Origin: Candidatus Poseidoniaceae archaeon
GTDB taxonomy: Archaea; Thermoplasmatota; Poseidoniia; Poseidoniales; Poseidoniaceae
DNA length: 32,000 bases
Assembly (NCBI GenBank): GCA_943789275.1
Contig: CALSTM010000003.1
Location: forward strand, 210,001-242,000
Direction: 5' to 3'
Shown: positions 7,279 to 22,242 of the stretch, piece by piece
Layout of the letters: each line of letters opens with the position of its first letter
Numbering within the stretch: position 1 is the stretch's first letter
Notes under the pieces: generated by a model
Database searches by the model: none
What the model was told of the DNA's origin: nothing
What the model saw: the letters and a program-made list of their open reading frames with translations, nothing else
Program-made: the position numbers and the translations under genes

Positions 7279-7465
7279 GTGCTTGACTGTGAGGATTTAT
7301 TCCGATACCATGTCGTCCGGAAAAACTCGTTGCAACCCTTTGTACACCCATTAGTAAGCTTTTCACGCGTGGGTACCCATTCGTGAGATGCATGTGGGAT
7401 GGGTGTTGGGTGGGTATACAGTTTGCTTCAAGTAGGGTTTATCTACAGTTGCCAATGGTAAGGGT

Positions 7466-8713
7466 TTGATGCAGATGAACGACTCCTTTGAATTTAGATT
7501 AGGAGATTGTTTTTCAATTGGAAAAGAATTGGAAGACGAGAGCATTGATTGCATCATTACATCTCCTCCATATTGGAAACAAAGAGAATATGATGTAGAT
7601 GAAACAAAGATTGAGTTCTTGATTGGAATGGAAGAAAAACCTGAAGAGTATGTAGACCATTTAGTTAGAGTTTTGTCAATCTTGAAAAAGAAATTGAAAA
7701 GAGGAGGGTCATTGTGGCTAAATCTTGGTGACAAATATGTGAAAAAGAACCTCATGGGTATGCCGTGGAGAGTGGCAATAGCGTTGATGGATGATGGCTG
7801 GATCTTGAGGAACGATGTAATATGGCATCGAATGAAAGGAACACAGAGTGCAAAGGATAAACTTCGAGATAACCATGAATACATCTTTCATTTTGTCAAA
7901 AACAAGAAATATTTCTATGACTTAGATTCCATAAGAATAGAGAGAGATCAAAAACCAAAGATGAAAAATGGTAGAATCGTATCATCCACCGGTGTTTCTG
8001 GACAATCTTATTTCCGTAAGATTAAGAATTCAACAATATTAACCGACGAAGAAAAAGAGAATGCGACAAATGCCCTTAATCAAATGTTGGGACGCATGAA
8101 AGAAGGTAATATTGATGATTTCCGAATGTACATCAAGGGAGAACACCGAATCCTGCATAGTGATAAAGAACGAATCAGCGGAAGGGCACGTCAATTAAAT
8201 AGGGAAGGATTCTACTTCATGAGTAGTACTTCAAAGGGTAAAGTTCCATCGGACATTTGGTCTCATTCAGACAATGACATTTTCGAAAACGATGCTATTT
8301 GTGCATTTGCTGTTTTAAGATCAGGGGACCTTATTCCAGGTACTCTATGGAATATTACTCCTGAAGATGAATGGAGAAAAGATGCTCATTATGCAGTGTT
8401 CCCTACAGAATTACTACGCATCCCCATTTTGGCAACATGCCCTATAGATGGTGTTGTTTTGGATCCATTTATGGGTACTGGTAGTACTATTCTGGCAGCA
8501 GTAGAATTTGGTAGGAAAGGAATTGGTTTCGATATTAGCCAGAAATATCTAGATATCGCGCAATCTAGACTGATAAAGGTCAACGGGGCTGCCAAGGAAG
8601 AATATCTAGATTTGCCTTCAAAGACAATAGTACAACTGAAAGAACTACTCAAAAAAGCAGGTAAACCAGTTTCCGGTAAGAAGTCTGAACTAATTAAAAG
8701 ACTCAATCAGTGA
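7466..8713 (+). CDS. beta-class DNA methyltransferase (N4-cytosine or N6-adenine) with C-terminal SAP motif
   Basis: Catalytic motif IV DCIITSPPYW is near the N-terminus. The AdoMet motif I VLDPFMGTGSTILAA is near residue 335, the beta-class order. The last ~35 aa, LPSKTIVQLKELLKKAGKPVSGKKSELIKRLNQ, fit the SAP helix-extended-helix pattern. The likely ATG start is 7469. Local GC is low. Confidence 0.9.
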   Translation: MMQMNDSFEFRLGDCFSIGKELEDESIDCIITSPPYWKQREYDVDETKIEFLIGMEEKPEEYVDHLVRVLSILKKKLKRGGSLWLNLGDKYVKKNLMGMPWRVAIALMDDGWILRNDVIWHRMKGTQSAKDKLRDNHEYIFHFVKNKKYFYDLDSIRIERDQKPKMKNGRIVSSTGVSGQSYFRKIKNSTILTDEEKENATNALNQMLGRMKEGNIDDFRMYIKGEHRILHSDKERISGRARQLNREGFYFMSSTSKGKVPSDIWSHSDNDIFENDAICAFAVLRSGDLIPGTLWNITPEDEWRKDAHYAVFPTELLRIPILATCPIDGVVLDPFMGTGSTILAAVEFGRKGIGFDISQKYLDIAQSRLIKVNGAAKEEYLDLPSKTIVQLKELLKKAGKPVSGKKSELIKRLNQ

Positions 8714-8763
8714 ATTGTATAAATTGGCTAATACATAATTAACAACCCAGTCTTAGCGTTGAC

Positions 8764-9534
8764 ATGGTCAAGGTTCCAATTGAGTGGTTTGGTTGGAAAA
8801 TCCCGGCCTTTAGTTCAACGGAATCAACTATTGGTCAAGGAAATCAAACCTGCAGATTTACAAACAACTTGTGCTCAAAGCCTCGAAAATCAACTCCTGA
8901 AATTAGGACTGGAATTTGCTCAGTAAACATGACTGCAGGATTTTTTGAAGGAACTAGAAGAGTAATCATCTGTCCTAAGCGCTTTGAATTAGATAATTTC
9001 TTTTCAATGCTTTCACAAAGATACTTTGACGCCGATCACTCTGTAACATGGACTCCAGAAGTCAAGATTGGCAATTTTGGGAATATCGATTTCGTGGCAT
9101 CACACTCATTACCAAGGGATGAAGAAGCGGATGAATCTGATGAAATGGAAGATGAAGATGATGTGGATGATGAACCACAAATCGTTTTGTTCGAATTACA
9201 AGCCGGAGGTACCACGGGAAGCCCTTATCCAGCAATTGAAGATTTTATTGAGAATCAGAGTTTTTCACAGACCAGCTACAGTTTTTCCATTAATTGGGCG
9301 AATGAATTTATCAAAACTATGGGGCAACAGATCATCAAAAAGGGTCACGCAATTAATGGCTGGGGGGTTCCGATTGTATTTGTTATTCAAGACGTGGCCA
9401 TGGAATATATCGTGGACAAAATGAATACTGAAAATCTAACAGAGCGCCCCGTAGATGCAGAGTGGCCTGACGAGGAGTATATCACTTTAGAACTATCACG
9501 ATGGGAGATGGTGATGATTCAATGTTTTCTTTAG
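8764..9534 (+). CDS. NotI-family type II restriction endonuclease (main reading frame; probably frameshifted near its 3' end)
   Basis: The N-terminal Cys cluster CRFTNNLCSKPRKSTPEIRTGICSVN...IICPKRF resembles, from memory, the NotI metal-binding region (CPF...C...GVCVVN...LVCPNR). IDFV...VLFELQAGGTTGS matches the NotI catalytic D...E-x-Q block (FDW...VLEIQTMDFHGS). It lies 50 nt downstream of the methyltransferase. Confidence 0.65.
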   Translation: MVKVPIEWFGWKIPAFSSTESTIGQGNQTCRFTNNLCSKPRKSTPEIRTGICSVNMTAGFFEGTRRVIICPKRFELDNFFSMLSQRYFDADHSVTWTPEVKIGNFGNIDFVASHSLPRDEEADESDEMEDEDDVDDEPQIVLFELQAGGTTGSPYPAIEDFIENQSFSQTSYSFSINWANEFIKTMGQQIIKKGHAINGWGVPIVFVIQDVAMEYIVDKMNTENLTERPVDAEWPDEEYITLELSRWEMVMIQCFL

Positions 9535-9674
9535 AAGAGGGGTCTTTCTACACAGCAACCTTGGAGACAGCTGAGGCAATGCTGACTGTAGAAGGGTCCA
9601 TCCATTTAAATCAATTTTTATTAGACTTGGAAGGCCGAATGGAAAGGGCTGAAACCTTCACAGTTGACACATGA
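9501..9674 (+). pseudogene. out-of-frame continuation of the NotI-like endonuclease (57 codons)
   Basis: A second frame is open from 9471. Read from ATG 9501 it gives MGDGDDSMFSLEEGSFYTATLETAEAMLTVEGSIHLNQFLLDLEGRMERAETFTVDT. It overlaps the last 34 nt of the main frame and fills the otherwise empty gap up to the recombinase stop. The NotI-like main frame (256 aa) is short for the family. Confidence 0.4.
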
Positions 9675-9678
9675 AAAG

Positions 9679-10471
9679 TTATTTTCTTCGATGCCAGGGC
9701 TTGCCTCCCCACCAAGGGGGGTGCTGAAACTTCAATCTCTTCATATGGAAATCATTACTGATTGTTCTAGTTATGGAATTACCTTGCCACTTCCCCCCTC
9801 GCTTACCCTTGATACCTCGCTTGTTGAGTGACCTAGCCAAAGCGGCAGTAGCCATGCCATTTTCATTAATTTGCCATGCCATGTAGTCGATGCAGTCTTG
9901 CTCAGTCCAATTGGGAACAAACATGCCATTCTCATCAACATCCCACCCAAAGATTGACTTCGTGAATTGTTTGTTTGTTGCTCGAAGTTGATTCATGGCT
10001 TCTACTGTTCGTTCTGAAATCAATCCTCTTTCCATTTCAGCGAGGGCGCCCATCAGTGTTAGAAAAAATCGACCCATCGTGGTTGAAGTATCTACAGCCT
10101 CACCGTTCAAATCCACAATGTGTAGATTGATATTTGCATCATTAAGTTCATCGATTGTTATCAAAACGTCTGTCGTCAATCTGAACATCCTATCTAATTT
10201 CATCGTAATGAGGTCGCTGTATTGGCCTGTGCTCAATCTTCGTTTGAGTATTCGACCTTTCGGCCTATCCCACAGTGGAATACCTCCACTCACACCTTCT
10301 TCGATAATGATGTCATCTGGACTGAGGTTCAATTTCTTGTATCTTACATATTCGAGAATTCTTCTCTTCTGAGCTTGTATGCTCACACCTTCATCCACCT
10401 GCCTCTGTGATTGAAACTCGAATGTAGGCTACGCTTTTTGCTCGTTGGTTAGGTTGATTATTATGCAACAT
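9679..10471 (-). pseudogene. serine recombinase (resolvase/invertase catalytic domain plus partial Recombinase domain), interrupted by a 1-nt frameshift just after the catalytic Ser codon
   Basis: The main frame 9679-10398 contains VDEGVSIQAQKRRILEY...GRFFLTLMGALAEMERGLISERT and IFGWDVDENG. It lacks the AxYxRVS catalytic strand, and an in-frame TAG sits at 10429-10431. A different frame from ATG 10471 reads MLHNNQPNQRAKSVAYIRVS. Deleting the single base at 10411 joins it to SQRQVDEGVSIQAQ, giving the canonical RVSSxxQxxxGxSxxxQ spacing. Confidence 0.8.
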
Positions 10472-10492
10472 TTCTGAAGATTGTGATACTTT

Positions 10493-10500
10493 CTATTTAA
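10493..10500 (-). promoter_or_regulatory. TATA-like box (TTAAATAG) for the recombinase, flanked by a 7-bp inverted repeat
   Basis: TTAAATAG on the minus strand ends 21 nt upstream of ATG 10471, consistent with a leaderless archaeal start. TTGTGAT (10481-10487) and ATCACAA (10504-10510) bracket it. Confidence 0.35.
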
Positions 10501-10528
10501 TACATCACAACGTCGGAAATTTCACGCA

Positions 10529-10742
10529 GTTGGAACAATCAACCAATCGTTAATCATAATTGCACATGGGTTCAAGCAAATAACCCTTGAAACATGTTGA
10601 TTGATTTTCAACGGTATGTTTGAACCCCTGTTTGAACAATCAACCAATCGATTAGGATAGGTTGCAAGGGGTTATCCGAAACCCCATTCAACTTCCAAAT
10701 CCGGTTTGAAGGGGATGCAGTCGGTCTGTTGGGTTCGCTACC
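10529..10742 (+). repeat. left copy of a ~210-bp imperfect direct repeat (partner at 20033-20246)
   Basis: It aligns by eye with 20033-20246 along its whole length. The alignment is strongest in the right ~145 bp, e.g. TTGAACAATCAACCAATCGATT / TTGAACCATCAACCAATCAATT, TATCCGAAACCC and GGTCTGTT.G.TTCGCTACC. It contains a ~20-bp motif three times: direct at 10531-10550, inverted at 10587-10614 and direct at 10631-10652. Confidence 0.85.
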
Positions 10743-11051
10743 GTTCCAACCATATACAGTCGCAAGGGCCCGCTTCCAACTTTTTTAAATGTATTATATT
10801 CACGCTATCCATCCAATTACTCTTGAGTGAATGGGGGCGTTGCGATTGGCATGACAAAAGTGCCTTTATATTGAAAAAATGATATTTCTACTCAATAACC
10901 TAATACAAATAGATGAAGAATCATTCTGAGGGTGGCAATCAGGAAGACCATGCAAAAGATACGGCAGAAATAACATGTTCAAGACCAACTTTATGGGCAT
11001 TAACGTTCTAGGTTCGCGGGCTGTAGCAACCCTCTATGAGGTTCAGTAATA

Positions 11052-11069
11052 TCTTTTGATGTCAAAAGA
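11052..11069. other. perfect 8-bp-arm palindrome TCTTTTGA-TG-TCAAAAGA followed by a T-rich run
   Basis: Read directly from the sequence. It lies in the 800-bp non-coding stretch, and GTTTGTTTGTT follows on the plus strand. Confidence 0.5.
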
Positions 11070-11178
11070 GTTTGTTTGTTCATTAAGTATTAAGCCACAA
11101 CCGGTATATAAAGAGGTGTACCCTGCTGGCCTGGTGACTTTTGAGCGTTCAATAGAAATAGATTTATTTCAGAAACAC

Positions 11179-11196
11179 CAATTAAAATTTTAATTG
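11179..11196. other. perfect 18-bp AT-only palindrome CAATTAAAATTTTAATTG just downstream of the 982-aa gene stop
   Basis: Read directly. It lies 12 nt beyond the stop codon (11208-11210) on the minus strand. It could be a terminator-like or protein-binding element. Confidence 0.45.
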
Positions 11197-11207
11197 AATA
11201 AATACGA

Positions 11208-14156
11208 TCATTCATTTTCTTCACTATCCGAAAGGTAACCATCCTTTAATTGACCCCACAGAAGGGACATTGCTGGTTTATCTTGATGTGTATTGATGTC
11301 CCTAAAAGTCGTGCTTGAAACGATCGTTCGGCCATCAAACACCACAGGGAATAAAACCAATCGACTCCATAAAATCCATTCTCGATCTGTGGTTTTACGT
11401 ATACGTTGGAAGGCACGTTCGATTGTTTCTTGTGTATTTGGTAATGTATTCGCACTCCCCGAAGGTGCATCCTCGTCGAAAACATCCAAAACATCCATCA
11501 GTTCCTCGTATTCTTCCGGGGTAAGTTCGTATGGGCCTTCGAATTTATTTGATAGCGGAGTCTGGATGAACGAAGTCCAATCTTCATAATGAATACCTTC
11601 AAAATTAAGTCGGGTTCGAGACTTCTCTAGTATTGAGACCATTGAACACTCAGGGCCTCTTCTCGGCAATCCGTTTGAGAGAAGATATTCGAGATCTAAA
11701 TCTCCACGGATCAGTTCTTTATCGTGGCGGTCATCAAACTTCAATGGATTGAAATGGATACCAAGATGTCCCTTCTGTTTTATGAGTATTTTTAATCTTG
11801 ATAATATGTCATCATTAATCTCACATTGATGAAGTTCAGGATTATTTTCAAAATAAGTTGCCTCGCTCTTCAGCCATTCACTGTGCATGAACTTCAAGAG
11901 AACGCGAACCTGATCGATAACCAGGACACTGCTGTCCTGATAAGGTTGGCGAAGTGGCTGTTCAAGCAACAAACGTGCGATCTGTTCAACACGGGCCGTG
12001 AGCACATACAAACGTGCAAACGAGACCCTCAACATCTGGTCGACAAGTTGAGCCTTGTCGTACAATTTTGAATCACCATCGTGCTGCAACACCCTCATCG
12101 GTGCCTGAGCAGCTTCTTGGGCCGCATGAATGATATCGTGAATGTGAATCGATTTCAAAGAAGACGGAAATCCACTGGTATCCACTGAAGATTGCCTTGC
12201 AGCACGATCAAGTCGGTCCTCAATATTGAATGGTGCTTGGTCAGCGATGAGATGTTCGATCAAATTCATCGAAGTCGCAGCAAACATGAGCGGGTCCATT
12301 CTATTGACGCGGTTGACATTTTTTCGGGAAAGAATGTTCTTTTTCAATTGAGCCTTAGTGTCGGCTGGCTCAGGAAGACGATGGCTCACAAAGGGCTTGT
12401 TGTTGGGGTTGCCTTTCAAATGACCAATGGAAAATTGTGGACGGTTTTTGACTGCGCCGCTGACTTTCCATGTGCTGTTTTTTCCCTCGTGATTGAACAT
12501 TTTTTCTAAATTTCCAAAGTAGTTGTTTTCATCTGGTTCTTTCAAAATCAATTGCATGTACGCCATCAAAATTGATATCTGCGATTGGTTGATAGAAGAT
12601 TGAGGGAAATATTGCAAATGTTTGGATTTGTGATTCTCTTCCACGCCCCAAATCCAACGAGGCAGAAGTCCCACTTTGGAGGTGAACGGATTTAATTCTC
12701 TTGGATCACCAATCAAACGGATTAATCTCCCGAGGCCGGATGGGTTGCCTTGCGAGGCAGATCTATCAAACATGTCATTCATGGATGCTTTTCTGAAGAG
12801 TCCTCTGATTCTTGCTGGACAATCCCTTTCATCGTCCCATCCCATCTCGATGTACTCCTCTATCAGTTTCGATTTTTGTTGAAAGTCTTCAGCATCGTCT
12901 TGTGAGATTTCCCCCTCTTTTACTTCCTTCTCGAAGTAATTCGGTTTAGACATCTCTAGGAGAATCGCCGGAACAATATTTGAGAGAAGGATACCCCTAT
13001 CTTGTTTAAGCTTGGAAAGAACCATTTCCTTCATCCAAGCATCGGTTGTTGTGACGGAATCAACAGCTTCTGTTAACTTTTCATACAAATCAATTATCTC
13101 AGTCGAAAATTCCAATCGAAGGGTGAGTTGGTTGATCGGGGGGTTATCATCATCGCCATTCGTAGCCGTCTGATCTTTTTTATCAGTCTTGACAAAAGGC
13201 CTTGTTTCGTTGACAAGATTGTGGCACATCACGCGCAAGGTGCTTTCGATGTGAAGCACAGACGAGATGTGCAATTTTCCGGCAGAATCCCGAATAAAAC
13301 TCCTGATTGCATTGAAAATGTTCTTGAGTTTGTCCTTGTCCGAGTTCTGTTCAAACTCTTTTAATGTTTGAGACGCTGCATTCTTTGAATTGAGGGTGAT
13401 TCTTTTGGAAATTTCAAACAGGGCGCGTATCCATAATTCTGCTTCAGTGGCATCTGCTTCTGTACTTGGTTGAATTTCGCTAAACAACAACGGACTGAAC
13501 GAAATTAAACCCTTGACATCCTCTGGCATGAATGCCTTTTCGTGGATTTTCAATTTCGAACCTTGCTTCGCCAGCATCAACGCTGGAGCGATCAAACCTC
13601 TTGCCCTCAACACCAATGTAGATTCATAGATGACCGCAATTTCCCACCAATTGACTGCAGATTCGGATTTGTTTTCTCGAATGATGGCATACCCCTTGTT
13701 GACGACAAAATTCGTTAATTCTTGATTGACTCGACAGTAGTCGCTAAGTTCATGCTGTGTGATTGTCGTTTTTTGGCCGGCGAGGGCTTCGGCACTGAGT
13801 TTACCGTTGAATGCGGTATTGATGCGGGCTATGATCCGGCGAAGGAGACAGATGTCATGCCATAGTTGAAAGGTTTTTTTTGAATGTTCAGCGTTATTCC
13901 ATTCCGAAACTTTGCGAATCGTTTCTTTGCTTAACTCAAGAAGTTCTCTTGTAAGTCGTTCAATTCGTGCTTTGGGCCGGTTGTGCACTGGTCCATTTGA
14001 TGAAGGTAGAACGCCATGTATGCAATCAACGATTGCGCTTGTAAGTGCGTTTGCTTCAAACAATACTGTGTGCGATTCACGGCCCATCATGTCCACTCTC
14101 ATGACGCCACATAACGTGAGTATATTTAAGCATGTTATGGTTGCATTCTCAAACAC
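11208..14156 (-). CDS. large hypothetical protein (982 aa in the longest frame), no recognisable domain; divergent partner of the NERD/SbcCD-like operon
   Basis: This is a long uninterrupted ORF in a low-GC stretch. I see no Walker A, nuclease or methylase motif, and the composition looks mostly alpha-helical. The likely true start is ATG 14102 (MRVDMMGRESH...), because a TATA-like box sits 18 nt upstream of it. Confidence 0.8.
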   Translation of the reverse strand: MFENATITCLNILTLCGVMRVDMMGRESHTVLFEANALTSAIVDCIHGVLPSSNGPVHNRPKARIERLTRELLELSKETIRKVSEWNNAEHSKKTFQLWHDICLLRRIIARINTAFNGKLSAEALAGQKTTITQHELSDYCRVNQELTNFVVNKGYAIIRENKSESAVNWWEIAVIYESTLVLRARGLIAPALMLAKQGSKLKIHEKAFMPEDVKGLISFSPLLFSEIQPSTEADATEAELWIRALFEISKRITLNSKNAASQTLKEFEQNSDKDKLKNIFNAIRSFIRDSAGKLHISSVLHIESTLRVMCHNLVNETRPFVKTDKKDQTATNGDDDNPPINQLTLRLEFSTEIIDLYEKLTEAVDSVTTTDAWMKEMVLSKLKQDRGILLSNIVPAILLEMSKPNYFEKEVKEGEISQDDAEDFQQKSKLIEEYIEMGWDDERDCPARIRGLFRKASMNDMFDRSASQGNPSGLGRLIRLIGDPRELNPFTSKVGLLPRWIWGVEENHKSKHLQYFPQSSINQSQISILMAYMQLILKEPDENNYFGNLEKMFNHEGKNSTWKVSGAVKNRPQFSIGHLKGNPNNKPFVSHRLPEPADTKAQLKKNILSRKNVNRVNRMDPLMFAATSMNLIEHLIADQAPFNIEDRLDRAARQSSVDTSGFPSSLKSIHIHDIIHAAQEAAQAPMRVLQHDGDSKLYDKAQLVDQMLRVSFARLYVLTARVEQIARLLLEQPLRQPYQDSSVLVIDQVRVLLKFMHSEWLKSEATYFENNPELHQCEINDDILSRLKILIKQKGHLGIHFNPLKFDDRHDKELIRGDLDLEYLLSNGLPRRGPECSMVSILEKSRTRLNFEGIHYEDWTSFIQTPLSNKFEGPYELTPEEYEELMDVLDVFDEDAPSGSANTLPNTQETIERAFQRIRKTTDREWILWSRLVLFPVVFDGRTIVSSTTFRDINTHQDKPAMSLLWGQLKDGYLSDSEENE
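14121..14129 (-). promoter_or_regulatory. TATA-like box TTAAATATA for the 982-aa gene
   Basis: On the minus strand, TTAAATATA is followed by 18 nt and then ATG 14102. This spacing fits an archaeal leaderless transcript. Confidence 0.4.
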
Positions 14157-14268
14157 ATTAAGGTTGCATCTGCGCTCAGATTTAGAAAGTCATAAACGAA
14201 AAAATCAATGCTAAGGATTGAAAATATGTTAGCACAGGTTTCATTAACTGGGACCAATTGGCAAACTC

Positions 14269-14892
14269 GTGCGAACACAGTCAGAGTTCAGAAAGCTTCG
14301 TCGAGAAATGGCGCCTTACGTGGAAGTCATTGCAAAAATTGGTGCAACTACGGTCAAATCGATCTTCGATGATGTGTGGAACAAAGAGGAAAAGGATATC
14401 GGATTCGAAGAAGACGATGCTTGGATGTCTCGATTTCTTGCAAAAATGGTCATTGATGATCTCATCGAAGACCAAGAGCAGTCCCGAACCCCCAAAGACG
14501 TTACACTTCTACATCAAAACATAGTGGAATCGATGGCGACTGTATTGCTTCAATGCCTCAAAACTCGAGCGATCATCGTTGAAGGCTATGTTCCATCGAT
14601 GACGACAGAATACGTGGTCTCTGAGTTCGTGAAGATGGCTATCAATGATTCAAATCTGGACCGCGCTATAATTGCATGGCGCTTATTGGAGGATCTTTCG
14701 ATGAGCTTTGGGCCAGCTATGCGGCGGTTAGCTCCTATTTTTACGTTAGCCAGGGAAGAAGTATCGGAATCCAAGGATCCTTCCTATGGTACGTTTGTTT
14801 TGATCGCAAATCTCACAGATCGCAGGATTGATCAAATGATTCTGAGGAAAATCGCGGCTGACGATACGGAAGAAGGGTGGTGGTGCGCATGA
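14269..14892 (+). CDS. hypothetical acidic helical protein, first gene of the operon
   Basis: 207-aa ORF with a GTG start at 14269 and an alternative ATG at 14308. Its stop overlaps the next gene's start as ATGA. No motif recognised. Confidence 0.65.
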   Translation: MRTQSEFRKLRREMAPYVEVIAKIGATTVKSIFDDVWNKEEKDIGFEEDDAWMSRFLAKMVIDDLIEDQEQSRTPKDVTLLHQNIVESMATVLLQCLKTRAIIVEGYVPSMTTEYVVSEFVKMAINDSNLDRAIIAWRLLEDLSMSFGPAMRRLAPIFTLAREEVSESKDPSYGTFVLIANLTDRRIDQMILRKIAADDTEEGWWCA

Positions 14893-16166
14893 TGAACATT
14901 TTCACAAATATTGGATGGTATCTCAGGGCTTCTAAAGAACGGAAAAAGCCATCCGATGGAATGCGCATTGCTGCTGAGAAGGCCGAGCTGGACGTCTTGG
15001 ACGCAATCGAGGAGATGCCCGGGGTCATTTCGGCTTGGCATGCGATCAGAATTCAAGATCCCACTCGCCGAATTGGTGCGGGCGAAGTCGATGTTATGGC
15101 CTTAACGAACAAGGGATTCGTTTGCATTGAAGTCAAGCACTGGACAGGAGCGGTTCAAATGATGGATGGAGACATTGTTCAAGAGAAGTTGCAAAAGAAA
15201 CGCCCTGTTTTTGAACCCCTCGAGAAGAAGGCCGTACATCTCAAGCGATGTGCTCAAACCCTGATTCAGGATGATGCGCTCGAGGTAATTACGCTCGTCG
15301 TTTTGACAAACCCTAATGCGAAAGCCAGTCATGATGTCTTGCAACACCCCAGAGTAGCGACGTTGAAGTCCCTCTCCGAGAAAATCAATCGCGGGTTCAG
15401 CGACCACGAACCGCTCAGCACCCACACACTGAACAATTACACTCAACTAGCCGCTTGTTTCGGCACTTGGGATTCGCTGGGATATGAAGGAGGCGCAACG
15501 CACATCGGCGATTTTGATGATCAGTTGATGCCACAAGAGTGGAGCAGAGACAAATATCAAGACATCGAGATTTCTATCGCTCATGGATTTTGGAAAACCA
15601 TTTTCTCAGGCCCGAAACTATCGATCCGCCTCACGGGCTGGGATGGCAAGGTAACGGTGGAGAACCTCACTCCGCCACTGCTCATCAAACACACCTCACC
15701 ATGGGAGAACGGTGGGATTGACAACAAGGGACATTATCCTGTCTCTTATCTTCGAACCATAACTTATGGTTTCCAGTACGACGCTTTTGGAGAGCATCAC
15801 GCACGGCGACTCGAGATGAACCTTCAATATCCGACAGAAGAACCATCCATCAGTCTTGGCAAAGAAGTACATTTGAAGCGCAAACACAACGATGCTGGGC
15901 GCCCACCGAGGATCGACTATTCGCAAAAATTCTCACCGGGGAGTCGTCACAAAGGCACCATTGTCAGGCATCTCAAAGACGAGGATGGCAACGTTTACGC
16001 GATGCTTGTGGCACTCGTTGAGCGGAAGGTCAAAGGACGGATTCGAATCCGCGACTTAGACGCTGTTCATCCAGACCTTTTCGATAGGGCTTATGGCGTT
16101 GGGACCCCGCTGGACGTGAGGATTAAAAGCTATACAAGCCCAAAGAAGATCGACCTACACATCTAA
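14889..16166 (+). CDS. NERD-domain (PD-(D/E)xK-like) nuclease with a tentative C-terminal S1/OB-like domain
   Basis: The NERD pattern is GEVDVMALTNKGFVCIEVKHWTG with flanking AEKAELDVLDAI and PLEKKAVHLKR. The C-terminal ~80 aa, GSRHKGTIVRHL...GNVYAMLVAL...KGRIRIRDLD...GTPLDVRIKSY...KIDL, resembles an S1 fold. ATG 14889 overlaps the upstream stop; the track start is 14877. Confidence 0.8.
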   Translation: MMNIFTNIGWYLRASKERKKPSDGMRIAAEKAELDVLDAIEEMPGVISAWHAIRIQDPTRRIGAGEVDVMALTNKGFVCIEVKHWTGAVQMMDGDIVQEKLQKKRPVFEPLEKKAVHLKRCAQTLIQDDALEVITLVVLTNPNAKASHDVLQHPRVATLKSLSEKINRGFSDHEPLSTHTLNNYTQLAACFGTWDSLGYEGGATHIGDFDDQLMPQEWSRDKYQDIEISIAHGFWKTIFSGPKLSIRLTGWDGKVTVENLTPPLLIKHTSPWENGGIDNKGHYPVSYLRTITYGFQYDAFGEHHARRLEMNLQYPTEEPSISLGKEVHLKRKHNDAGRPPRIDYSQKFSPGSRHKGTIVRHLKDEDGNVYAMLVALVERKVKGRIRIRDLDAVHPDLFDRAYGVGTPLDVRIKSYTSPKKIDLHI

Positions 16167-16167
16167 T

Positions 16168-16284
16168 ATGGAAGTGAAAAATATGAACATGAATAAAGAA
16201 ACAGAAGAAGCGAACATGGGGATTCCTCGGAAACCCCATGCGATTTTGACGACCTTGATATATAGTGGGCAGGGGGTTTGTTGA
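16168..16284 (+). CDS. possible 38-aa micro-ORF bridging the NERD and phosphoesterase genes
   Basis: ATG 16168 lies 1 nt after the NERD gene's TAA. It translates as MEVKNMNMNKETEEANMGIPRKPHAILTTLIYSGQGVC. Its TGA (16282-16284) overlaps ATG 16284 of the next gene as TGATG. It is below the 60-aa track cutoff. Confidence 0.3.
   Translation: MEVKNMNMNKETEEANMGIPRKPHAILTTLIYSGQGVC
16215..16240 (+). other. hairpin CATGGGG-(12 nt)-CCCCATG carrying the GGGG..TCC..GAAACCCC motif also present in both flanking repeats
   Basis: A 7-bp perfect stem read directly. The related motif occurs at 10668-10685 (GGGGTTATCCGAAACCCC) and 20175-20191 (GGGGGTATCCGAAACCC). Confidence 0.5.
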
Positions 16285-17414
16285 TGAGCATCAAGATTCT
16301 CGCAACCGGCGATTTTCAGTTGGATAAGACGTTTGGAACGCTTGGCGAATACGCAGGAGCCTTCCGCCAGCAACTTATGGCCACCTTCAAGCACGTGATG
16401 CTTGAAAGCACCAAAGATCATGACATCGTCCTCATTGCTGGAGACCTTTTTGACCGAATGGGAACGCCGATTCACATCATTCAAGAGGTCGCTGAAACTC
16501 TTGCAAAATGCCCGATTACGTGCGTCGTCCTCCCTGGAAACCACGATCCTGTCATCAGCGGAATCCCGAAGGCATTGAGCGAGGCTCTGAAAGCCAAGAA
16601 TGCAAGTCACGTCCATGTGGCGTTGAAGCGTGAGCCAATCCATTTCGAAGCGCTTGGAATGACATTGTATCCGGCGCCGCTCTTTCGTAAGGATGACATC
16701 TCAAACCAATACGCTTGGATTCCAGCGCGAAAAGATGGAGATGGGTTACGCGTAGCCCTCATGCACGGAGCTCTTACCACCCTGCCGAACGGGCTGATTC
16801 CTGAAGATGTCGCCAATCAGATGGACCTCGACCTCGTAATTTGCGGAGATCAACACGGTCCTTTATCGGGAGATTCTGAGGCTTCACCACTGTTTAACCT
16901 TGCAACTTCGAAAGCTCGTCGCTTGTATTACGCAATGGCTCCCGAGGCACAAAACATCAGTCAGAACTTCACGGGAAGCGTTCTGAGTCTTGAGGTGGAC
17001 GATGCTCATGCAGTCATGGATGCATCGAGAATCGATGTCGGCGTCTTGCGCTTTGTAAACGGCAGCGTAAACTTCGCTGGTGAGAGCGACATTGAGGGGC
17101 AACTTGCTCCATTCTTCGAACCGTACAACGAGCAGCAGCCTGGACTGGTAAGTCTTCGGCTTGAACTCACAGGCGAAATCACACGCGATGAGTCGGTTGC
17201 ACTGCAGGCTCAACTGGAAAACCTTCGGCAGCAATGGCCGCTTCTCGATGTGAAGAATCTGGTTGCCGTTCCTCAGGAGGATGCTGAACTCGCAGGTCCT
17301 GAAAACCCCCTCCAAACAATGATCCAAGATGCCCTTCATGCTTCTGATGCTTCTGAAGAAATACGAGCCAAAGTCATTGAGTTGCTACCAATTATCATCG
17401 GGAGGTGCGACTAA
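16284..17414 (+). CDS. SbcD/Mre11/YhaO-like calcineurin-type metallophosphoesterase with non-canonical motifs I and VI
   Basis: Motifs in order are ATGDFQLD (canonical DxH), AGDLFD (GDxxD), LPGNHD (GNHD), LMHGA (H) and CGDQHG (canonical GHxH). The C-terminal LRLELTGEI region is like the SbcD/YhaO capping domain. The stop overlaps the next start as TAATG. Confidence 0.8.
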   Translation: MSIKILATGDFQLDKTFGTLGEYAGAFRQQLMATFKHVMLESTKDHDIVLIAGDLFDRMGTPIHIIQEVAETLAKCPITCVVLPGNHDPVISGIPKALSEALKAKNASHVHVALKREPIHFEALGMTLYPAPLFRKDDISNQYAWIPARKDGDGLRVALMHGALTTLPNGLIPEDVANQMDLDLVICGDQHGPLSGDSEASPLFNLATSKARRLYYAMAPEAQNISQNFTGSVLSLEVDDAHAVMDASRIDVGVLRFVNGSVNFAGESDIEGQLAPFFEPYNEQQPGLVSLRLELTGEITRDESVALQAQLENLRQQWPLLDVKNLVAVPQEDAELAGPENPLQTMIQDALHASDASEEIRAKVIELLPIIIGRCD

Positions 17415-20023
17415 TGCTCAAAAATATCGAACAATTAATTGTCCGAGACATCCGAAAATGGGACGGTGAACACACGTTCGATTTCCATGAGGGAGTCACT
17501 GTTCTTCACGGCCAAAACGGACGGGGCAAGACGACTCTAAACACTGCGTTAATGCTCACACTCGTGTTTTCTGCCAATTCGAACGGACTTCAGCAGGATC
17601 TCACACCTCGAAATGGTGGATCCCCGCGGTCCAGTGTGATTTTCTCGACACAAGATGGACGGCGATTCAGAATCAGCAAAACATGGGGCGACAGAAACCA
17701 ATCTCGTCTTTTCGATGCCGACACAAATGAAGAACTTGCACGTGGAGGGGACGCCGAAGATCAAACTCGAGAATTGGCCTTCGGAATTCCGCCATCCAGC
17801 GGCCGGTACAGCGCCAGAAATGGGTTGGTCGCTAATCTCGAGCAAACGATCGAAAACTACGTTGCAACCCTCTCCTTCTATTCACAGGGGAGCCTCCATA
17901 TCGCCCCAAAAATGGGCGAGGCCCTAAGAAACATTGGCCTCGTAGCGGACGAAGCAGAACGAGCACGAGGCTTTACTGCAATCAGTCTTGTGGCCAAAAC
18001 TGAGTCTCAAGGACTCATTTCGGGAGTGACAAACGCAGGGTTGCCAAGGGCAAATGCAACTGGGAGAGTAATCAATCAGCAGAAGGTGCTCGATAACATC
18101 CGTGCTGAAATTCAGCAAGCTCGCGAAACCGAAGCAGACTTGATCGAGGCTGAATCAAATCTGTTTGTAATGACGGATGAGGTTGACGAGGACATCAATG
18201 AAGAAACTCGGCAACAGAAAGCGGATTTGATTCGAGGCTTTACTCAAGATGCGGCCAATCACCGGGCAGAGCGGGAAGCAGCACGCGTCCTTCATGATCA
18301 ATCAAAGGAAACCCATGACCCACTCAAAGTCATGAACGATGAGCGGAAGCGACTCATCAAAACCGCCCGCGATGATGCGAAGAGTTTGAGAGGTCTCGGG
18401 CAAAAGGAGAACCATGCTCGAGAAAAGTTCGAACAGTCAGAAGCGTTACATGCGTTGAAGTTACAAGAGAAAGACACTCATTCTTTAGAACTTGAAAACA
18501 TCAAACTCTGGCAACTCTACCTCACTCAAGAAGAGCGGAATCAAGAACAAAGGGTTGCACTCGGCAAAGCCATTGAACATCGTAACAACCACGAGGAAGG
18601 GCTCGTATACCAGGCAACGCTCCAACAGCAACGAGATCATCTCCAGTTAGCGAGTGACGAACAGTGGACAAAAATCAAGGATTATGATGCACAAATTGCT
18701 GCTGCAAAGGCAGAAAGGACCATGAAGATCAAGATCGGAACACTCCCAAAGAATTGGGTTGTCGAAGGCGATGGCTTGCCCCTCCAAGAGGATGGTTCAG
18801 CTTCAGAAAGCATCGAAGTCCGGGACAAAGACGGCATGGTTTTGGAAGTGCGGCAAGCCATGGATGGTGCGTCACCCACCGAACTTGAACTCTTGAAAAA
18901 TGAAGTGCTTGGAGAACTAAAGGCTACATCAACAAGTGAGCTCCGCCAACGGCAAGACGAAGCAACTCGGTTAAAAACTGAAATTGATGTAAGCAAGCGA
19001 TCGTTGGCAATGCTTCCTCTGACCACTGAACTCGATGCCATCATCGCCGAGCTCAAGGCCAAAATCGAAACAGAAGTGACGCAACCAGACCTTCCACTGC
19101 CTGAAGGAGACTTGCGCGATGAAGGTGTCCGTATTACTGAACGGGTACGGCTCGCAGAAAAGGCGCTGGAAGCCGTTCGTGAAGCACGGACACAGGCGCA
19201 AGCTGATTACATCACCTCGAACACAAGGCTCGTCGATGCGACAACCGTATGGAATGAAATTCTTTCAACGCTGGAGGAGCATCGTACCACCTACGGGACT
19301 GACGAGGATGTAGCTCAACAATTAACTCAAGCATCTCAAGACTTAGAAACAAAGGCTGCGGTGTGGAATGGATTTGTTGAAAATAAGGAACTACGGGAGG
19401 ATGCACCCGAAAAGAAGGCAACAAATCTCCAGCGATCACTCGACGCTTATGATCAACAACGGAACGGACTGATTCGCCTTCAAGAGCGAGTGGTTCTGTT
19501 GAGAAGCAACCCTCTCTTACAACGTCTTCCGGATTTGGAAGCAGCACTCCATGTTGAGGCCGATGAGTTGGCACGGCTCCAATTGGAATACGAAGCATAC
19601 GACTTGATTCAGAAATTAGCGGAGCAAGCTGGCGTGGCTGCTCAACAACTCGCTCGCAATGAAACTACAGAACGAATGCACCGTTTGCTGAACTATGTCT
19701 GGGGAGTGGATGCTGACTTGACCTTTGCCGAGGACGGTGCACCCATTCAAACCCGCCAAATAAACATCAAAGATGAATCGCATGGAACCAAGGAGCAACT
19801 CCAAACAATTCTTCGCTTGGTACTGCTTTCAACCGCAGCAGAGAATGGTACAACGATGCTGCTGGATGATGCGCTTGTCTTCTCCGATGATGGGCGATTA
19901 AACAGAATGAAGGATGTGCTCCAGGTCGAGAGCAACGCCGGTATGCAATTGATCATCTTCACATGTCGGCCGGAGGATTACGTAGACATCGCTGATGAAA
20001 TCATCAATCTGGACGACTTTTGA
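17414..20023 (+). CDS. SbcC/Rad50/YhaN-like coiled-coil ABC-type ATPase lacking a zinc hook
   Basis: Walker A is GQNGRGKTT. Long heptad-like Glu/Gln/Arg/Lys-rich arms follow. The C-terminal signature-like sequence is SHGTKEQLQTILRL, and Walker B/D-loop is TMLLDDALVFSD. GGAGGTG lies 9 nt upstream of ATG 17414; the track start is 17405. Confidence 0.85.
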   Translation: MLKNIEQLIVRDIRKWDGEHTFDFHEGVTVLHGQNGRGKTTLNTALMLTLVFSANSNGLQQDLTPRNGGSPRSSVIFSTQDGRRFRISKTWGDRNQSRLFDADTNEELARGGDAEDQTRELAFGIPPSSGRYSARNGLVANLEQTIENYVATLSFYSQGSLHIAPKMGEALRNIGLVADEAERARGFTAISLVAKTESQGLISGVTNAGLPRANATGRVINQQKVLDNIRAEIQQARETEADLIEAESNLFVMTDEVDEDINEETRQQKADLIRGFTQDAANHRAEREAARVLHDQSKETHDPLKVMNDERKRLIKTARDDAKSLRGLGQKENHAREKFEQSEALHALKLQEKDTHSLELENIKLWQLYLTQEERNQEQRVALGKAIEHRNNHEEGLVYQATLQQQRDHLQLASDEQWTKIKDYDAQIAAAKAERTMKIKIGTLPKNWVVEGDGLPLQEDGSASESIEVRDKDGMVLEVRQAMDGASPTELELLKNEVLGELKATSTSELRQRQDEATRLKTEIDVSKRSLAMLPLTTELDAIIAELKAKIETEVTQPDLPLPEGDLRDEGVRITERVRLAEKALEAVREARTQAQADYITSNTRLVDATTVWNEILSTLEEHRTTYGTDEDVAQQLTQASQDLETKAAVWNGFVENKELREDAPEKKATNLQRSLDAYDQQRNGLIRLQERVVLLRSNPLLQRLPDLEAALHVEADELARLQLEYEAYDLIQKLAEQAGVAAQQLARNETTERMHRLLNYVWGVDADLTFAEDGAPIQTRQINIKDESHGTKEQLQTILRLVLLSTAAENGTTMLLDDALVFSDDGRLNRMKDVLQVESNAGMQLIIFTCRPEDYVDIADEIINLDDF

Positions 20024-20032
20024 GGCAAAACC

Positions 20033-20246
20033 TCTTGTTACATCCACCAACCAATTAATCTCCATGATTTCGAATGGGTTTTTGCACCGACCCCATCGAA
20101 CAGATTGATTGGTTTGAACGGTGTGAAAATTCACCATGTTGAACCATCAACCAATCAATTCGGATGCGTTGGAAGGGGGTATCCGAAACCCTATCCAACT
20201 GGAAAAGTCGTTGGAAGGGTTTTCAGTGGGTCTGTTTGTTCGCTAC
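20033..20246 (+). repeat. right copy of the ~210-bp imperfect direct repeat (partner at 10529-10742)
   Basis: It begins ~10 nt after the ATPase stop and ends 7 nt before the stop codon of the convergent aconitase-family gene. The motif copies lie at 20041-20060 (direct), 20097-20121 (inverted) and 20138-20160 (direct). Confidence 0.85.
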
Positions 20247-20253
20247 CCTCTGC

Positions 20254-22242
20254 TCAGTTGAACAGGCCTTCATTCCACGACGTGATACTTCCTGTGAAAG
20301 CAGATGCAGCAACAGTAAGTGGGCTTGCAAGGTAGAGTTTTCCAGGCCCAGAACGTCCTTGGAAATTACGATTGATTGCGGAGACGGTCACTTGTTCAGG
20401 CGTGATGGAAACTCCAGGGCCTGCACCAATACATGCCCCACAACCCGGGTCGATGAGTTTGACACCAACTCGGCCGAACAAATCGTGCCAGCCTTCGCGA
20501 ACAGCCAAATCTTTGACGAGACCTGATCCATATTGAATGTAGAAATCAACACCGTCCTTGACCACGAGACCTGCTTCTTCAGCTGCTTTACACACTTGAG
20601 CATAGTAAGCAACATCGTCTGCTTTACCAGCAGTACACGAGCCACCATAGGCGATATCGATGGTGACGCTACCGATATCAGCAACATTCGCTCCATTGGT
20701 CGGGTCGCTTGGAATGCCTTTGTTCGGGTCGCCTGGGTGTGCGACCATCGGTTGAATTTCAGACATGTTGATGATGTGGACTCCCCCGTCATAATGAGCG
20801 TCTTGGTCAGGATGTACGGCAAGTCCTTTCTGAGTCTCAAGGTCAAGGTGCGGTTGGGCAGCAATCATCCAGTCATACAGCAGGTCATCCGCTTCACAAA
20901 TCCCCGTACGGCCTGAACATTCTGTTGCCATGTTGCACAAGGTCGCTCTTTCATCAATGGACAAACCTGCGAGGCCAGAGCCGCCGAATTCCATGCTGCG
21001 ATTCAAGGTGAGTTCCTTGCGAGCGTGGTCGGCAAGGATGAACAGAATGACGTCTTTCGCAGTGCAACCCTTGGCAAGTGTGCCTTGCAGTTCGAATCGG
21101 ATTGATTCAGGGACCTTGACAAACGTGAATCCTGCACTGATGAGGTTGGCGTATTCAGTTGCGCCTACACCCCATGTCAAGGCATTCGAAGCGCCACCCA
21201 TGCAGGTGTGGGAGTCGGTGGCTTGGATGAAATCACCAACTTCGATAAACTCTTCACGCGCCACTTGATGGCAAATACCAGGAGAAACGCCGTCTTTGGC
21301 AGAATAATCACGAACTTTCGTGTGCTGCTGGAATGCAATTTGTAAATCTCTCAACGTTTGTACCTTGTCCATGAATGGAACAAACTTTGGATTGTGATGG
21401 GCATAGAGCAAATGGTCTTCAAACACGGCGAACTTTCCAGGGTTTGGTAATGCGTACCCCTCTCCGTATTCTTCTTGTAAGAAGGTATGAACTTGGGCGG
21501 TGGTAAATTCGTGTGAATAGCCACCTTGAACTTGGGCGATAACCGGGTCTTCAGGTTTGACACACTGCCCGTCATCTTGACCGACAAGGTTCCGAGCAAT
21601 GATTTTCTCAGCCATAGTCATTGGTCGGGGTGGCGTGTTGATAGCAGGCAGTTCGATGTCTCCAGATTTTAGAGATTTAGCAAACGGAAATAATCCACCT
21701 TTCTCAAGAATAATTTGAGTGACTTCATCGTAACGCGAGGTGAACTCTTCCAAAGCGATTTCTTCACCGTTTTGAAGCCGTTCAAGCATTGCATGGTCGC
21801 CCATGATTTGACCGAGATTGATGTTGTTCCGTTCATGAATTGGGGCAAAAGAGGCGGCGATGACGATGTTTATTCCTGCCCAGCGTTCACACTGAGCGGC
21901 GGTTTCTCTCGAGGAGCCCGTTCCCTTTCGTTGTCCAGAGACAATCGCTTCGAAGTTTCCATTTTTGAGGGCGTTTTCACTGAAGACTCTTAGGCCATTA
22001 TGCATCAATCCAGCATAGGCGTTTTTAGCAATTTCAGCCGGGTCATGGTCGAAACAGACCCATGCAGGCGTCATGACATCGGTATTAATATCGTCAAGCA
22101 AGTCATCAACGGTGAGGTCTTTCATGTTGAGATTAAGACCATCATACAATTGCTGTTTGATGAGACTGAGGTCTTTTGTAAGGAAAAGAACCCTTTTTTC
22201 AGGGTTTAGAGCAACTTTTTCCGGTGGCCACTGGTCTCTCAT
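20254..22242 (-). CDS. aconitase-superfamily hydratase/dehydratase with the swivel (LeuD-like) domain at the N-terminus
   Basis: The N-terminal GTGSSRETAAQCERWAGINIVIAASFAPIHERNNINLG is swivel-domain like. Catalytic domains follow with Fe-S ligand contexts TDSHTCMGG, GGSCTAGK and PGCGACIG. Confidence 0.85.
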   Translation of the reverse strand: MRDQWPPEKVALNPEKRVLFLTKDLSLIKQQLYDGLNLNMKDLTVDDLLDDINTDVMTPAWVCFDHDPAEIAKNAYAGLMHNGLRVFSENALKNGNFEAIVSGQRKGTGSSRETAAQCERWAGINIVIAASFAPIHERNNINLGQIMGDHAMLERLQNGEEIALEEFTSRYDEVTQIILEKGGLFPFAKSLKSGDIELPAINTPPRPMTMAEKIIARNLVGQDDGQCVKPEDPVIAQVQGGYSHEFTTAQVHTFLQEEYGEGYALPNPGKFAVFEDHLLYAHHNPKFVPFMDKVQTLRDLQIAFQQHTKVRDYSAKDGVSPGICHQVAREEFIEVGDFIQATDSHTCMGGASNALTWGVGATEYANLISAGFTFVKVPESIRFELQGTLAKGCTAKDVILFILADHARKELTLNRSMEFGGSGLAGLSIDERATLCNMATECSGRTGICEADDLLYDWMIAAQPHLDLETQKGLAVHPDQDAHYDGGVHIINMSEIQPMVAHPGDPNKGIPSDPTNGANVADIGSVTIDIAYGGSCTAGKADDVAYYAQVCKAAEEAGLVVKDGVDFYIQYGSGLVKDLAVREGWHDLFGRVGVKLIDPGCGACIGAGPGVSITPEQVTVSAINRNFQGRSGPGKLYLASPLTVAASAFTGSITSWNEGLFN

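Follow-up and report, generated by a model that had tools for sequence, protein, structure and literature searches.

Results

A strain-variable island beside an aconitase-family gene

The window analyzed here, a stretch of 32,000 nucleotides (nt) of DNA from a member of the Poseidoniaceae, carries an island of strain-variable content between a major facilitator superfamily (MFS) transporter gene and the 3' end of an aconitase-family gene; the island consists of two tandem units (Table 1), each ending in one copy of a long direct repeat. A sequence-only reading of this DNA had taken the two repeats as the brackets of a single cassette, excisable or delivered by recombination, and our results support that reading in part. 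Below we describe the repeats, the family of structured elements to which they belong, and the serine recombinase encoded beside one of them.

Both repeats are real and lie where that reading had placed them: positions 10529-10742 and 20033-20247 hold copies of ~210 nt that are ~73-80% identical and both on the plus strand, that is, in direct orientation. Left and right copies match by blastn at 72.7% over 209 nt (E = 1e-22, far beyond chance), a MAFFT alignment of 10500-10760 with 20010-20270 gave 80% mean column identity over ~215 nt, and a repeat search returned 85% over 62 nt (10632-10693 versus 20139-20200). The right copy starts 10 nt past the stop of the last cassette gene (20023) and ends 7 nt before the aconitase-family stop codon (20254-20256), and the left copy adjoins the recombinase gene, starting 57 nt upstream of its intact start (~10472). 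They share no long identical core, as had also been noted, which is compatible with a 2-bp crossover. Each repeat is internally double, being composed of two tandem modules; module 2 (10630-10742; 20139-20247) comprises a hairpin part and the tail GCAGTSGGTC-N8/9-CGC-TA-CC, and module 1 (10529-10629; 20033-20138) is a second copy of the hairpin part without the tail. Neither Rfam at gathering thresholds nor a tRNA/tmRNA scan gave a match in the window; the repeat is therefore neither a known RNA nor a tRNA-derived attachment site.

The variable segment is larger than had been proposed. Aligned with contigs L001, L002, and L008, the window is identical through ...GCGTGGGTA and divergent after it; the conserved flank thus ends at TA 7374-7375 and not at 10529, and the island is 7376-20243, in agreement with a lower G+C content across 7000-14500. 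At the other end, TGA-GCAGAGGG-TA is common to all 10 strain variants after the aconitase stop, with divergence beyond it, so that the junction lies 8 nt from that stop in each of the 10. The aconitase protein itself is identical in contigs L001 to L010, yet the adjacent DNA differs in almost every one, holding several restriction-modification or defense genes, small open reading frames (ORFs), or, in L001, just a 156-amino-acid (aa) ORF. In a scan of one genome per species, the aconitase-family protein was found only in Candidatus Poseidoniales/Poseidoniaceae (Marine Group IIa), at 81-96% identity; some 60 related species lack the island and show the order TFB, aconitase, TopoVI-B with ~145 nt of spacer. 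The flanks of the island encode TFIIB, topoisomerase VI, Sec61-beta, and similar archaeal proteins.

Table 1. Coordinates of the island, its two units, and their genes and borders in the window
Feature	Position	Strand	Remarks
MFS-side border site	7364-7377	+	CACGCGTGGG-TA-CC, TA 7374-7375; end of strain-conserved flank
Unit 1, putatively autonomous cassette (methyltransferase, putative restriction partner, serine recombinase, left double element)	7376-10738		TA 7374-7375 to TA 10739-10740
N6/N4 DNA methyltransferase, C-terminal SAP domain	7469-8713	+	Pfam N6_N4_Mtase 7e-48; PADLOC type II MTase 2e-67
ORF, 256 aa (303 aa in sister contigs), putative restriction partner	8764-9534	+	Role suggested by position
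Serine recombinase gene, 263 aa if intact, frameshifted here	9679-10472	-	Pfam Resolvase 4e-23 and partial Recombinase domain (PF07508)
Left double element	10529-10742	+	Recombinase-proximal end of unit 1; putative crossover TA 10739-10740; L211 identity from 10739
Unit 2, cassette without recombinase (short inverted end, five genes, right double element)	10741-20243		L211 match
Putative short-form end of unit 2	10741-10790	-	Minus strand GGAAGCGGGCCCTTGCGACTGTATATGGTTGGAACGG-TA: loop-less palindrome, ~20 nt, TA
ORF, 982 aa, no assigned family	11208-14156	-	918, 960, and 1016 aa in sister contigs
ORF, 207 aa, no assigned family	14269-14892	+	ORF call
NERD (nuclease-related domain) protein	14889-16166	+	Pfam NERD 3.6e-10; weakly like PglW and MAD6 NERD regions
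Mre11/SbcD-like metallophosphoesterase	16284-17414	+	Pfam Metallophos 1e-12; TIGR00619 sbcD 5e-7
Rad50/SbcC-like ABC ATPase, long coiled coil	17414-20023	+	Weak SMC_N/AAA; N-terminus versus PDB Rad50 chains 3e-4
Right double element	20033-20247	+	Terminal element of unit 2; putative crossover TA 20244-20245; L211 identity stops at TACC 20244-20247
Aconitase-side half-site and aconitase stop	20246-20256	+	CCCTCTGC and TCA (TGA on minus strand); shared by 10 variants

A family of structured elements

The repeats of the window belong, as doubled copies, to a family of ~100-nt elements common among the Marine Group IIa archaea (Poseidoniaceae). An iterated nhmmer profile seeded with the two window copies found 60 copies in the loci fetched: they border the variable segments in L001 and L004 to L010, and further copies sit at intergenic insertions elsewhere in other species of the Poseidoniaceae (L030, L040, L053, L056, L075, L079, and L081). 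Three subfamilies, type A (that of the window), type B (...GTACAATGGGTGTTCAGTCCCCCAGTACACTCGC-TA), and type C (...GCAGTCCGCCCTTTCAGAGGC-TA), follow a common plan of three arms with GGG/CCC/GGG cores (A, inverted A', and A2) and then a tail that runs to C-TA-CC.

A degenerate pattern for the type A tail matched at least 120 marine metagenome contigs; among the matches listed, the profile confirmed 116 of 120, with a total of 189 elements over 506 kb. Many of these matches lie at contig ends, as expected of repeats that break assemblies. Neighboring elements on the metagenome contigs stand in direct orientation in 43 cases (448-4089 nt apart, median ~0.9 kb), with tails outward in 20 (363-4629 nt), and with tails facing each other in 10, including 5 direct joints with a spacing of 88-92 nt. 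Between elements in direct orientation there is usually a single ORF, and its orientation varies: 30 ORFs point the same way and 25 the opposite way. The majority of these ORFs match no Pfam family. In IMG/VR viral contigs, the three tail types had no matches or chance matches only; the elements are therefore not evidently viral.

Covariation, computed on an alignment of 46 diverse type A copies with shuffled and slid controls, indicates that the arms are kept matched. The pairing of H0 (CGGAT/ATCCG) together with A':A2 scored 0.310 against a shuffle mean of 0.151 (reached by 0 of 500 shuffles; slid controls ≤0.132), and the alternative A:A' pairing scored 0.264 against 0.163 (0 of 500; slid ≤0.140), the middle arm being complementary to both of its neighbors. 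Such covarying arms could equally reflect a folded strand, of DNA or RNA, or inverted and direct binding sites kept matched within one element. Folding of the single sequences was barely better than that of shuffles (z = -1.6 and -2.2 for the two repeats).

Junctions at a TA dinucleotide

The borders of the cassettes were located by comparison of strains. L211, which was retrieved through the exact SbcD-like cassette protein, carries the same 9.5 kb among other neighbors: window 10739-20250 corresponds to L211 4455-13967 (98.9% over 9515 nt), and the rest of the two sequences is unrelated. At the left junction, the window reads ...GGGTTCGC-TA-CCGTTCC and L211 reads ...TCAGTGGG-TA-CCGTTCC, with only TA shared before the cassette; at the right junction, ...GTTCGC-TA-CC-CTCTGC in the window stands against ...GTTCGC-TA-CC-GTCGTG in L211. 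Since identity runs from TA to TA, the module includes the right repeat and excludes the left. The proposal of a discrete module delimited by recombination is thus borne out, but with one repeat rather than two; the left copy, which had been taken as the left bracket of the cassette, is the recombinase-proximal end of the neighboring restriction-modification/recombinase unit.

Over a further segment, L211 14343-18359 equals L009 16014-11996 at 99.8%; L211 is therefore the same aconitase hot spot in another strain, and this match led us to reject the alternative that it holds the cassette at a different locus. Three other units (4.4 kb) lie there between unit 2 and the aconitase gene, an HNH-gene unit takes the place of the restriction-modification/recombinase unit, and the L211/L009 array has at least five units. 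The comparison shows modular reshuffling of the array at fixed TA borders.

Other loci present the same junction. L004 has two joints between a type A tail and an inverted type B tail, with only TA in common (...ACACTCGC-TA-GTGTCTATAC... and ...CAGACGC-TA-GGGAGTGTAC...), which is the product expected from recombination between inverted sites, and L010, L006, and L008 carry a cassette (a 120-aa ORF and an element) that is missing from L007, the difference beginning at the tail. All 216 distinct tails carry the TA, although CGCTACC was imposed on part of the sample by the pattern used to search metagenomes. The bases after the TA are biased to CC(C/G)(T/A)(T/C)(T/G)(G/C), the reverse complement of the tail motif CAGWGGG, and the full junction thus approximates an imperfect palindrome centered on TA.

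Compact palindromes of the form CAGAGGG-TA-CCCTCTG, with loop-less palindromes ~13 nt away, were found in L292, L305, L261, and L285, and further compact palindromic sites are the short site of L211 (GGCAAGGGGGCCCCTTTGC...CAGTGGG-TA) and the left end of the window cassette on the minus strand. The architecture of that left end, which from its resemblance to the short site at L211 4400-4455 and to the metagenome palindromic sites we take as a putative short-form end, is listed in Table 1. In their extended form, the sites in L292 (~1380-1510), L305 (~745-875), L261, and L285 read [CAGAGGGG.CCCCTTTG]-13 nt-[CAGAGGG-TA-CCCTCTG]-14 nt-[CAGTGGGC.CCCCTCTG]; these may represent either empty landing pads or two short ends that abut. 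The junctions provide good evidence that the cassette borders are true recombination points.

A serine recombinase linked to the element

The layout of unit 1 is repeated in at least 10 sister contigs (L213 to L222); the ten are 99.0-99.4% identical to the window over 11-19 kb and keep the same order of MFS gene, methyltransferase, recombinase, and five genes. In the window, the catalytic serine region is missing from the recombinase ORF (9679-10398); a single additional base near 10410 (10405-10417, minus strand) breaks the frame inside the catalytic AYIRVSS motif. Most sister contigs have the gene intact, as in L213, where it encodes 263 aa with the N-terminus MLHNNQPNQRAKSVAYIRVSSQRQVDEG; L216 has a different indel nearby. 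Homologues numbered 1044 at E < 1e-5, mostly on short metagenome contigs; the best 120 of the 1044 are all 255-269 aa long and 61-92% identical, and the AY(I/V)RVSS motif is intact in all copies examined. The alternative that the window gene is a decayed fragment was rejected, because the sister contigs and the more than 1000 homologues give ~260 aa as the full length.

The closest solved structure is the catalytic domain of the TP901-1 integrase (9e-13), and the best NCBIfam profiles are CcrB (9e-21, positions 8-247 of 542), XisF, and CcrC; from these matches, the protein appears to resemble the N-terminal half of the large serine recombinases, without their zinc-ribbon and coiled-coil parts. 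Its score against the CcrB profile, 74 bits, lies below the cutoff of 900 that defines the equivalog of the staphylococcal cassette chromosome (SCC), whose Ccr proteins have ~440-560 aa.

Gene and element are closely linked. The start codon of the recombinase lies 252-268 nt inside an outward-pointing element tip in the window-type contigs, L233, L234, L359, and L268, with a spacing in L235 equal to that in L234, and an element lies within 3 kb of the recombinase gene at every locus whose flank is long enough to tell, against a background of ~1 element per 175 kb in 80 loci of other species (1.4 Mb). L233 and L234 hold units of 8.5-9 kb with inverted type B elements at their ends and palindromic targets, that of L234 combining the recombinase with MksE/MksF-like genes; L333 holds a 3.8-kb unit with inverted type A elements, centered in a perfect 28-bp palindrome (GTATCTCCATGGG-TA-CCCATGGAGATAC); and in L359 a type ISP restriction enzyme and a PLD/SNF2 gene stand behind the recombinase. 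Throughout the 506 kb of element-bearing contigs, no recombinase or transposase family recurs other than the serine recombinase. There is also a hint that the element types A, B, and C vary with the clade of the recombinase.

On the 2.04-Mb contig of L233 (10001-18297), the recombinase gene is followed by ~8 kb with a dozen small ORFs (38-224 aa) and wide spacers, a region that looks like a cassette array inside a larger unit. Units of ~5.3 kb in L224 to L232 (e.g., L224 620-6741) contain small ORFs of no assigned function, lie between two distinct genes for serine recombinases (269 and 261 aa), and have a type C element inside. Charybdis elements integrate in Poseidoniales (bioRxiv 10.1101/2025.08.03.668216), and we considered whether the L224-type units are integrated Charybdis elements; this found no support, one L224 protein being without relatives in IMG/VR viral contigs.

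Cargo and flanking genes

Unit 2 carries five genes, whose combination matches no known defense system in PADLOC; from the gene types and the defense-rich hot spot, we regard it as a putative antiviral defense module. The 982-aa protein has no match in Pfam, PADLOC, NCBIfam, PHROGs, or PDB, the 207-aa protein none in Pfam, PADLOC, NCBIfam, or PHROGs, and the 256-aa ORF of unit 1, which may encode the nuclease that goes with the methyltransferase, none in Pfam, NCBIfam, or PHROGs. Among the ~99%-identical sister contigs L213 to L222, the 982-aa ORF has 918, 960, or 1016 aa or is split into 545, 213, and 155 aa, and the 207-aa ORF ranges from 174 to 222 aa; these differences reflect either a truly variable pair of proteins or assembly indel noise. 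In L253 (930-4924), two type A elements enclose a divergent cassette with SbcC-like and SbcD-like genes (689, 381, and 185 aa), so this class of cargo recurs in the system. The commonest cargo beside elements (17 loci among L236 to L355) comprises large thrombospondin type 3-like repeat proteins with Asp-rich DTDGDGVDD motifs, which are probably surface proteins, and small secreted proteins starting MRNDQIFVLLLV recur among the metagenome loci L236 to L355.

At the same hot spot, L002 (12129-19928) carries a ResIII helicase, a 1055-aa methyltransferase, and a 386-aa serine recombinase (41% identical) in a related unit with other ends: its junctions read GTGGG-TA-GTCTGTG and ACAGACGG-TA-CCCTCTGC, and it is without the long element. 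The MFS/BT1 transporter gene (5152-7278, G+C ~0.55) is missing from this place in the ~60 related species, in which the aconitase gene is directly beside TopoVI-B; because its end is the short site CACGCGTGGG-TA, the MFS segment may itself be an old, fixed cassette. The aconitase-family protein (20254-22242, 662 aa) has the Aconitase_C swivel N-terminal to the main Aconitase domain, a permuted order.

Discussion

Our results favor, with moderate confidence, the view that the island consists of two adjacent mobile cassettes in a hot spot and belongs to a cassette array, SCC-like or integron-like, in which a serine recombinase exchanges units at TA. A more far-reaching proposal is tentative, and we hold it a little short of an even chance: that Marine Group II archaea possess a cassette-exchange system, comparable in function to integrons and SCC elements, in which a ~260-aa serine recombinase acts on structured ends of ~100 nt at palindromic TA sites; assembles, shuffles, and inverts arrays of defense, restriction-modification, and cell surface genes at chromosomal hot spots; and is a main generator of their flexible genome.

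Each cassette has a long structured element at one end (~100 nt, doubled to ~214 nt in both cassettes here) and a putative short inverted end opposite; every border is a TA dinucleotide, and the recombinase gene of unit 1 reads inward from the long element. A serine recombinase, encoded by unit 1 or by a copy elsewhere in the genome, would pair two sites and exchange strands at the central TA; we infer that the 263-aa protein is the catalyst, that it makes a 2-bp staggered cut at TA, and that a circle is the intermediate. Because TA is its own reverse complement, deletion or insertion and inversion would both be possible outcomes. Exchange between TA 10739-10740 and TA 20244-20245 would free a circle made of unit 2 with a single element, the right one, and the reverse reaction would insert it. 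The predicted deletion junction is GGGTTCGC-TA-CCCTCTGCTCAG (also written ...GTCTGTTGGGTTCGC-TA-CCCTCTGCTCAGTTGAAC), and the predicted circle junction is TGTTTGTTCGC-TA-CCGTTCCAACC (also written ...GTCTGTTTGTTCGC-TA-CCGTTCCAACCATATAC).

Several observations weigh against this interpretation. The recombinase copy of the window is frameshifted, which may be a true inactivation or may be a long-read homopolymer error, and, among the matches listed, the recombinase is encoded on only 6 of 120 metagenome contigs with elements, so that action in trans has to be assumed. The search that the sequence-only reading had called for, for an excision product, a circle junction, or an empty site of the cassette, returned none in the contig collections searched: the circle-junction pattern GGGTCTGTTTGTTCGCTACCGTTCCAACC had 0 matches in JGI metagenome contigs, a weak negative because the close relatives are mostly in ENA assemblies, and no contig among those examined has unit 1 present and unit 2 precisely missing. 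L211 documents changed neighbors within one hot spot, not movement to a new locus, and the element shared by L007 and L010 differs at four positions just upstream of TA, so that the two do not form a clean before-and-after pair. Covariation of hairpin arms is unusual for plain protein-binding sites and could mean a role as folded strand or RNA. Finally, the window shows no enrichment of the strict half-site CARWGGG, and a picture of multiple half-sites in phase is therefore only weakly suggested.

The elements might instead be dispersed intergenic repeats of the repetitive extragenic palindrome or miniature inverted-repeat transposable element type, with cassette differences arising by homologous recombination and no dedicated recombinase. 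They are indeed abundant and assembly breaking, mostly have no recombinase gene nearby, and, at 70-90% identity over ~100 nt, are similar enough for some homologous exchange. We nevertheless consider this unlikely, since junctions fall at the same TA although the partners share few bases (CAGTGGG-TA in L211 versus GGTTCGC-TA in the window, and the L004 joints) and the recombinase stands at a constant ~260 nt from the element tips. The presence of TA on both sides of the units, some of which have inverted ends in palindromic targets, would also suit nonautonomous transposons whose TA target is duplicated by an unidentified IS630/Tc1-mariner-like transposase. This seems quite improbable, given that the serine recombinase is the sole recurrent enzyme of the element-bearing contigs and that the GCAGTGGG motif lies 12-13 nt from TA at the long end and abuts TA at the short end, so that there are no proper terminal inverted repeats.

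Cassettes mostly of a single ORF, elements of ~100 nt in direct orientation at a median spacing of ~0.9 kb, arms that covary so that structure is kept while sequence varies, and a cargo mostly without known function all recall integrons, in which attC-like sites would fold as single strands and be used by a tyrosine recombinase such as that of the Xer-like gene ~9.5 kb off (~29739-30782). We give this very little probability: there is no IntI and no GTTRRRY core, the crossover is at the TA of the 3' tip and not in the stem, ORF orientation is random, and the Xer-like gene, which from its conservation looks like a housekeeping gene, is kept at 77-95% in 16 loci of other species irrespective of islands. 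A survey of archaeal integrons (PMC9668308) makes no mention of Poseidoniales, Thermoplasmatota, or Marine Group II. The least probable of these explanations is that the repeat is a structured RNA, either a 3'-end or terminator element or a small RNA, which recurs after genes and is linked to the borders only secondarily. It would account for the two alternative hairpins that covary above shuffled and slid controls and for the position of the right copy directly 3' of the last cassette gene; against it stand the lack of a match in Rfam, the marginal folding energies, the occurrence of elements in either orientation relative to neighboring ORFs, and the fact that the invariant part is the unpaired tail, which reaches to the recombination junction.

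Cassette exchange at TA, if it operates as we propose, matters because Poseidoniales are among the most abundant archaea of the surface ocean and are uncultured; our finding offers a concrete, testable route to their flexible genomes. Its parts are defined: a DNA element on at least 120 metagenome contigs, a putative crossover TA, and a candidate enzyme family of more than 1000 homologues of ~260 aa. The system would play in archaea the part of SCC elements and integrons, spreading defense and surface genes, it would account for islands that break short-read assemblies, and it would provide an unusually small serine recombinase with a mapped site, a possible tool for genome engineering. The literature on Poseidoniales and Marine Group II yielded no description of it, within a coverage that is incomplete and leaves an earlier description possible; the system is widespread and apparently undescribed.

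Comparison with known systems

In SCC elements, Ccr recombinases mobilize neighboring tandem defense cassettes (bioRxiv 10.1101/2023.03.17.533233). The island resembles SCC and SCCmec (CcrAB/CcrC) in its integration just past the 3' end of a conserved housekeeping gene, in tandem cassettes with directly repeated sites between them, one with a recombinase and its neighbors without, and in a cargo rich in restriction-modification and defense genes, and CcrB is the best NCBIfam match of its recombinase. It differs in its archaeal host, in a recombinase of ~260 aa without zinc-ribbon and coiled-coil parts, in structured ends of at least ~100 nt in place of short integration sites, and in its many cassettes of a single small ORF.

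With integrons (IntI, attI, and attC; archaeal ones, PMC9668308), the system has in common compact cassette arrays, structured end sites of ~100 nt whose architecture is kept while the sequence varies, strain-variable contents, and cargo mostly without known function. Unlike integrons, it has no tyrosine integrase, attI, common promoter, R/L core, or GTTRRRY; its putative crossover is at a terminal TA, its genes lie in either orientation, and its cassettes may hold multiple genes and reach 9.5 kb. Arms similar to RYYYAAC occur in some element copies, but the borders are at TA ~25 nt past the last hairpin, which sets the elements apart from attC, and the only tyrosine recombinase, ~9.5 kb away, does not qualify as an intI.

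The sequence-only reading had also proposed resolvase-type deletion between res-like sites. The geometry agrees with this: as in Tn3/gamma-delta, a multipart site of ~100-200 nt lies directly upstream of a serine recombinase gene, direct sites are arranged for deletion, and an A/T dinucleotide crossover is at the end of the site. The enzyme does not, since it has 263 aa and is not a 185-aa resolvase with a helix-turn-helix. Moreover, no DDE transposase is found in the window or recurs in the 506 kb, there is no cointegrate to resolve, inverted and tail-to-tail junctions show that the reaction is not confined to deletion, and the sites lie at the ends of mobile units and not inside them. A res site has ~120 bp and three subsites, each an inverted pair of a 12-bp motif, and the element may or may not be of this kind: it has three covarying arms (A, A', and A2) with GGG/CCC cores and a tail repeat, but no 12-bp motif. 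As with the att sites of large serine integrases, recombinant junctions share the crossover dinucleotide only (the left junction of window and L211; L004), but the best 120 of the 1044 homologues, at 255-269 aa, are without the full-length form, in which zinc-ribbon and coiled-coil domains control direction. Tn4451 and Tn5397 (TnpX/TndX) excise as circles and insert by way of a 2-bp crossover dinucleotide present at both ends, into targets that resemble the joined ends; what separates them from the system described here is their full-length large serine recombinases, their GA dinucleotide, and their bacterial hosts, and they are not known to form arrays whose ends are structured over 100 nt.

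The tycheposons of Prochlorococcus use tRNA genes as integration sites, with partial tRNA repeats, and their recombinases are mostly of the tyrosine type (910 of 937; bioRxiv 10.1101/2020.12.28.424599). They too are integrative elements with cargo, among them tandem arrays and units that lack an integrase, and they build flexible islands in an abundant, streamlined marine microbe; no tRNA, by contrast, is involved here. Because defining features of each known family fail (recombinase size and domains, type of site, or host), we regard the system as a recombinase-driven cassette island that lies outside the SCC, integron, Tn3, serine-transposon, and tycheposon families.

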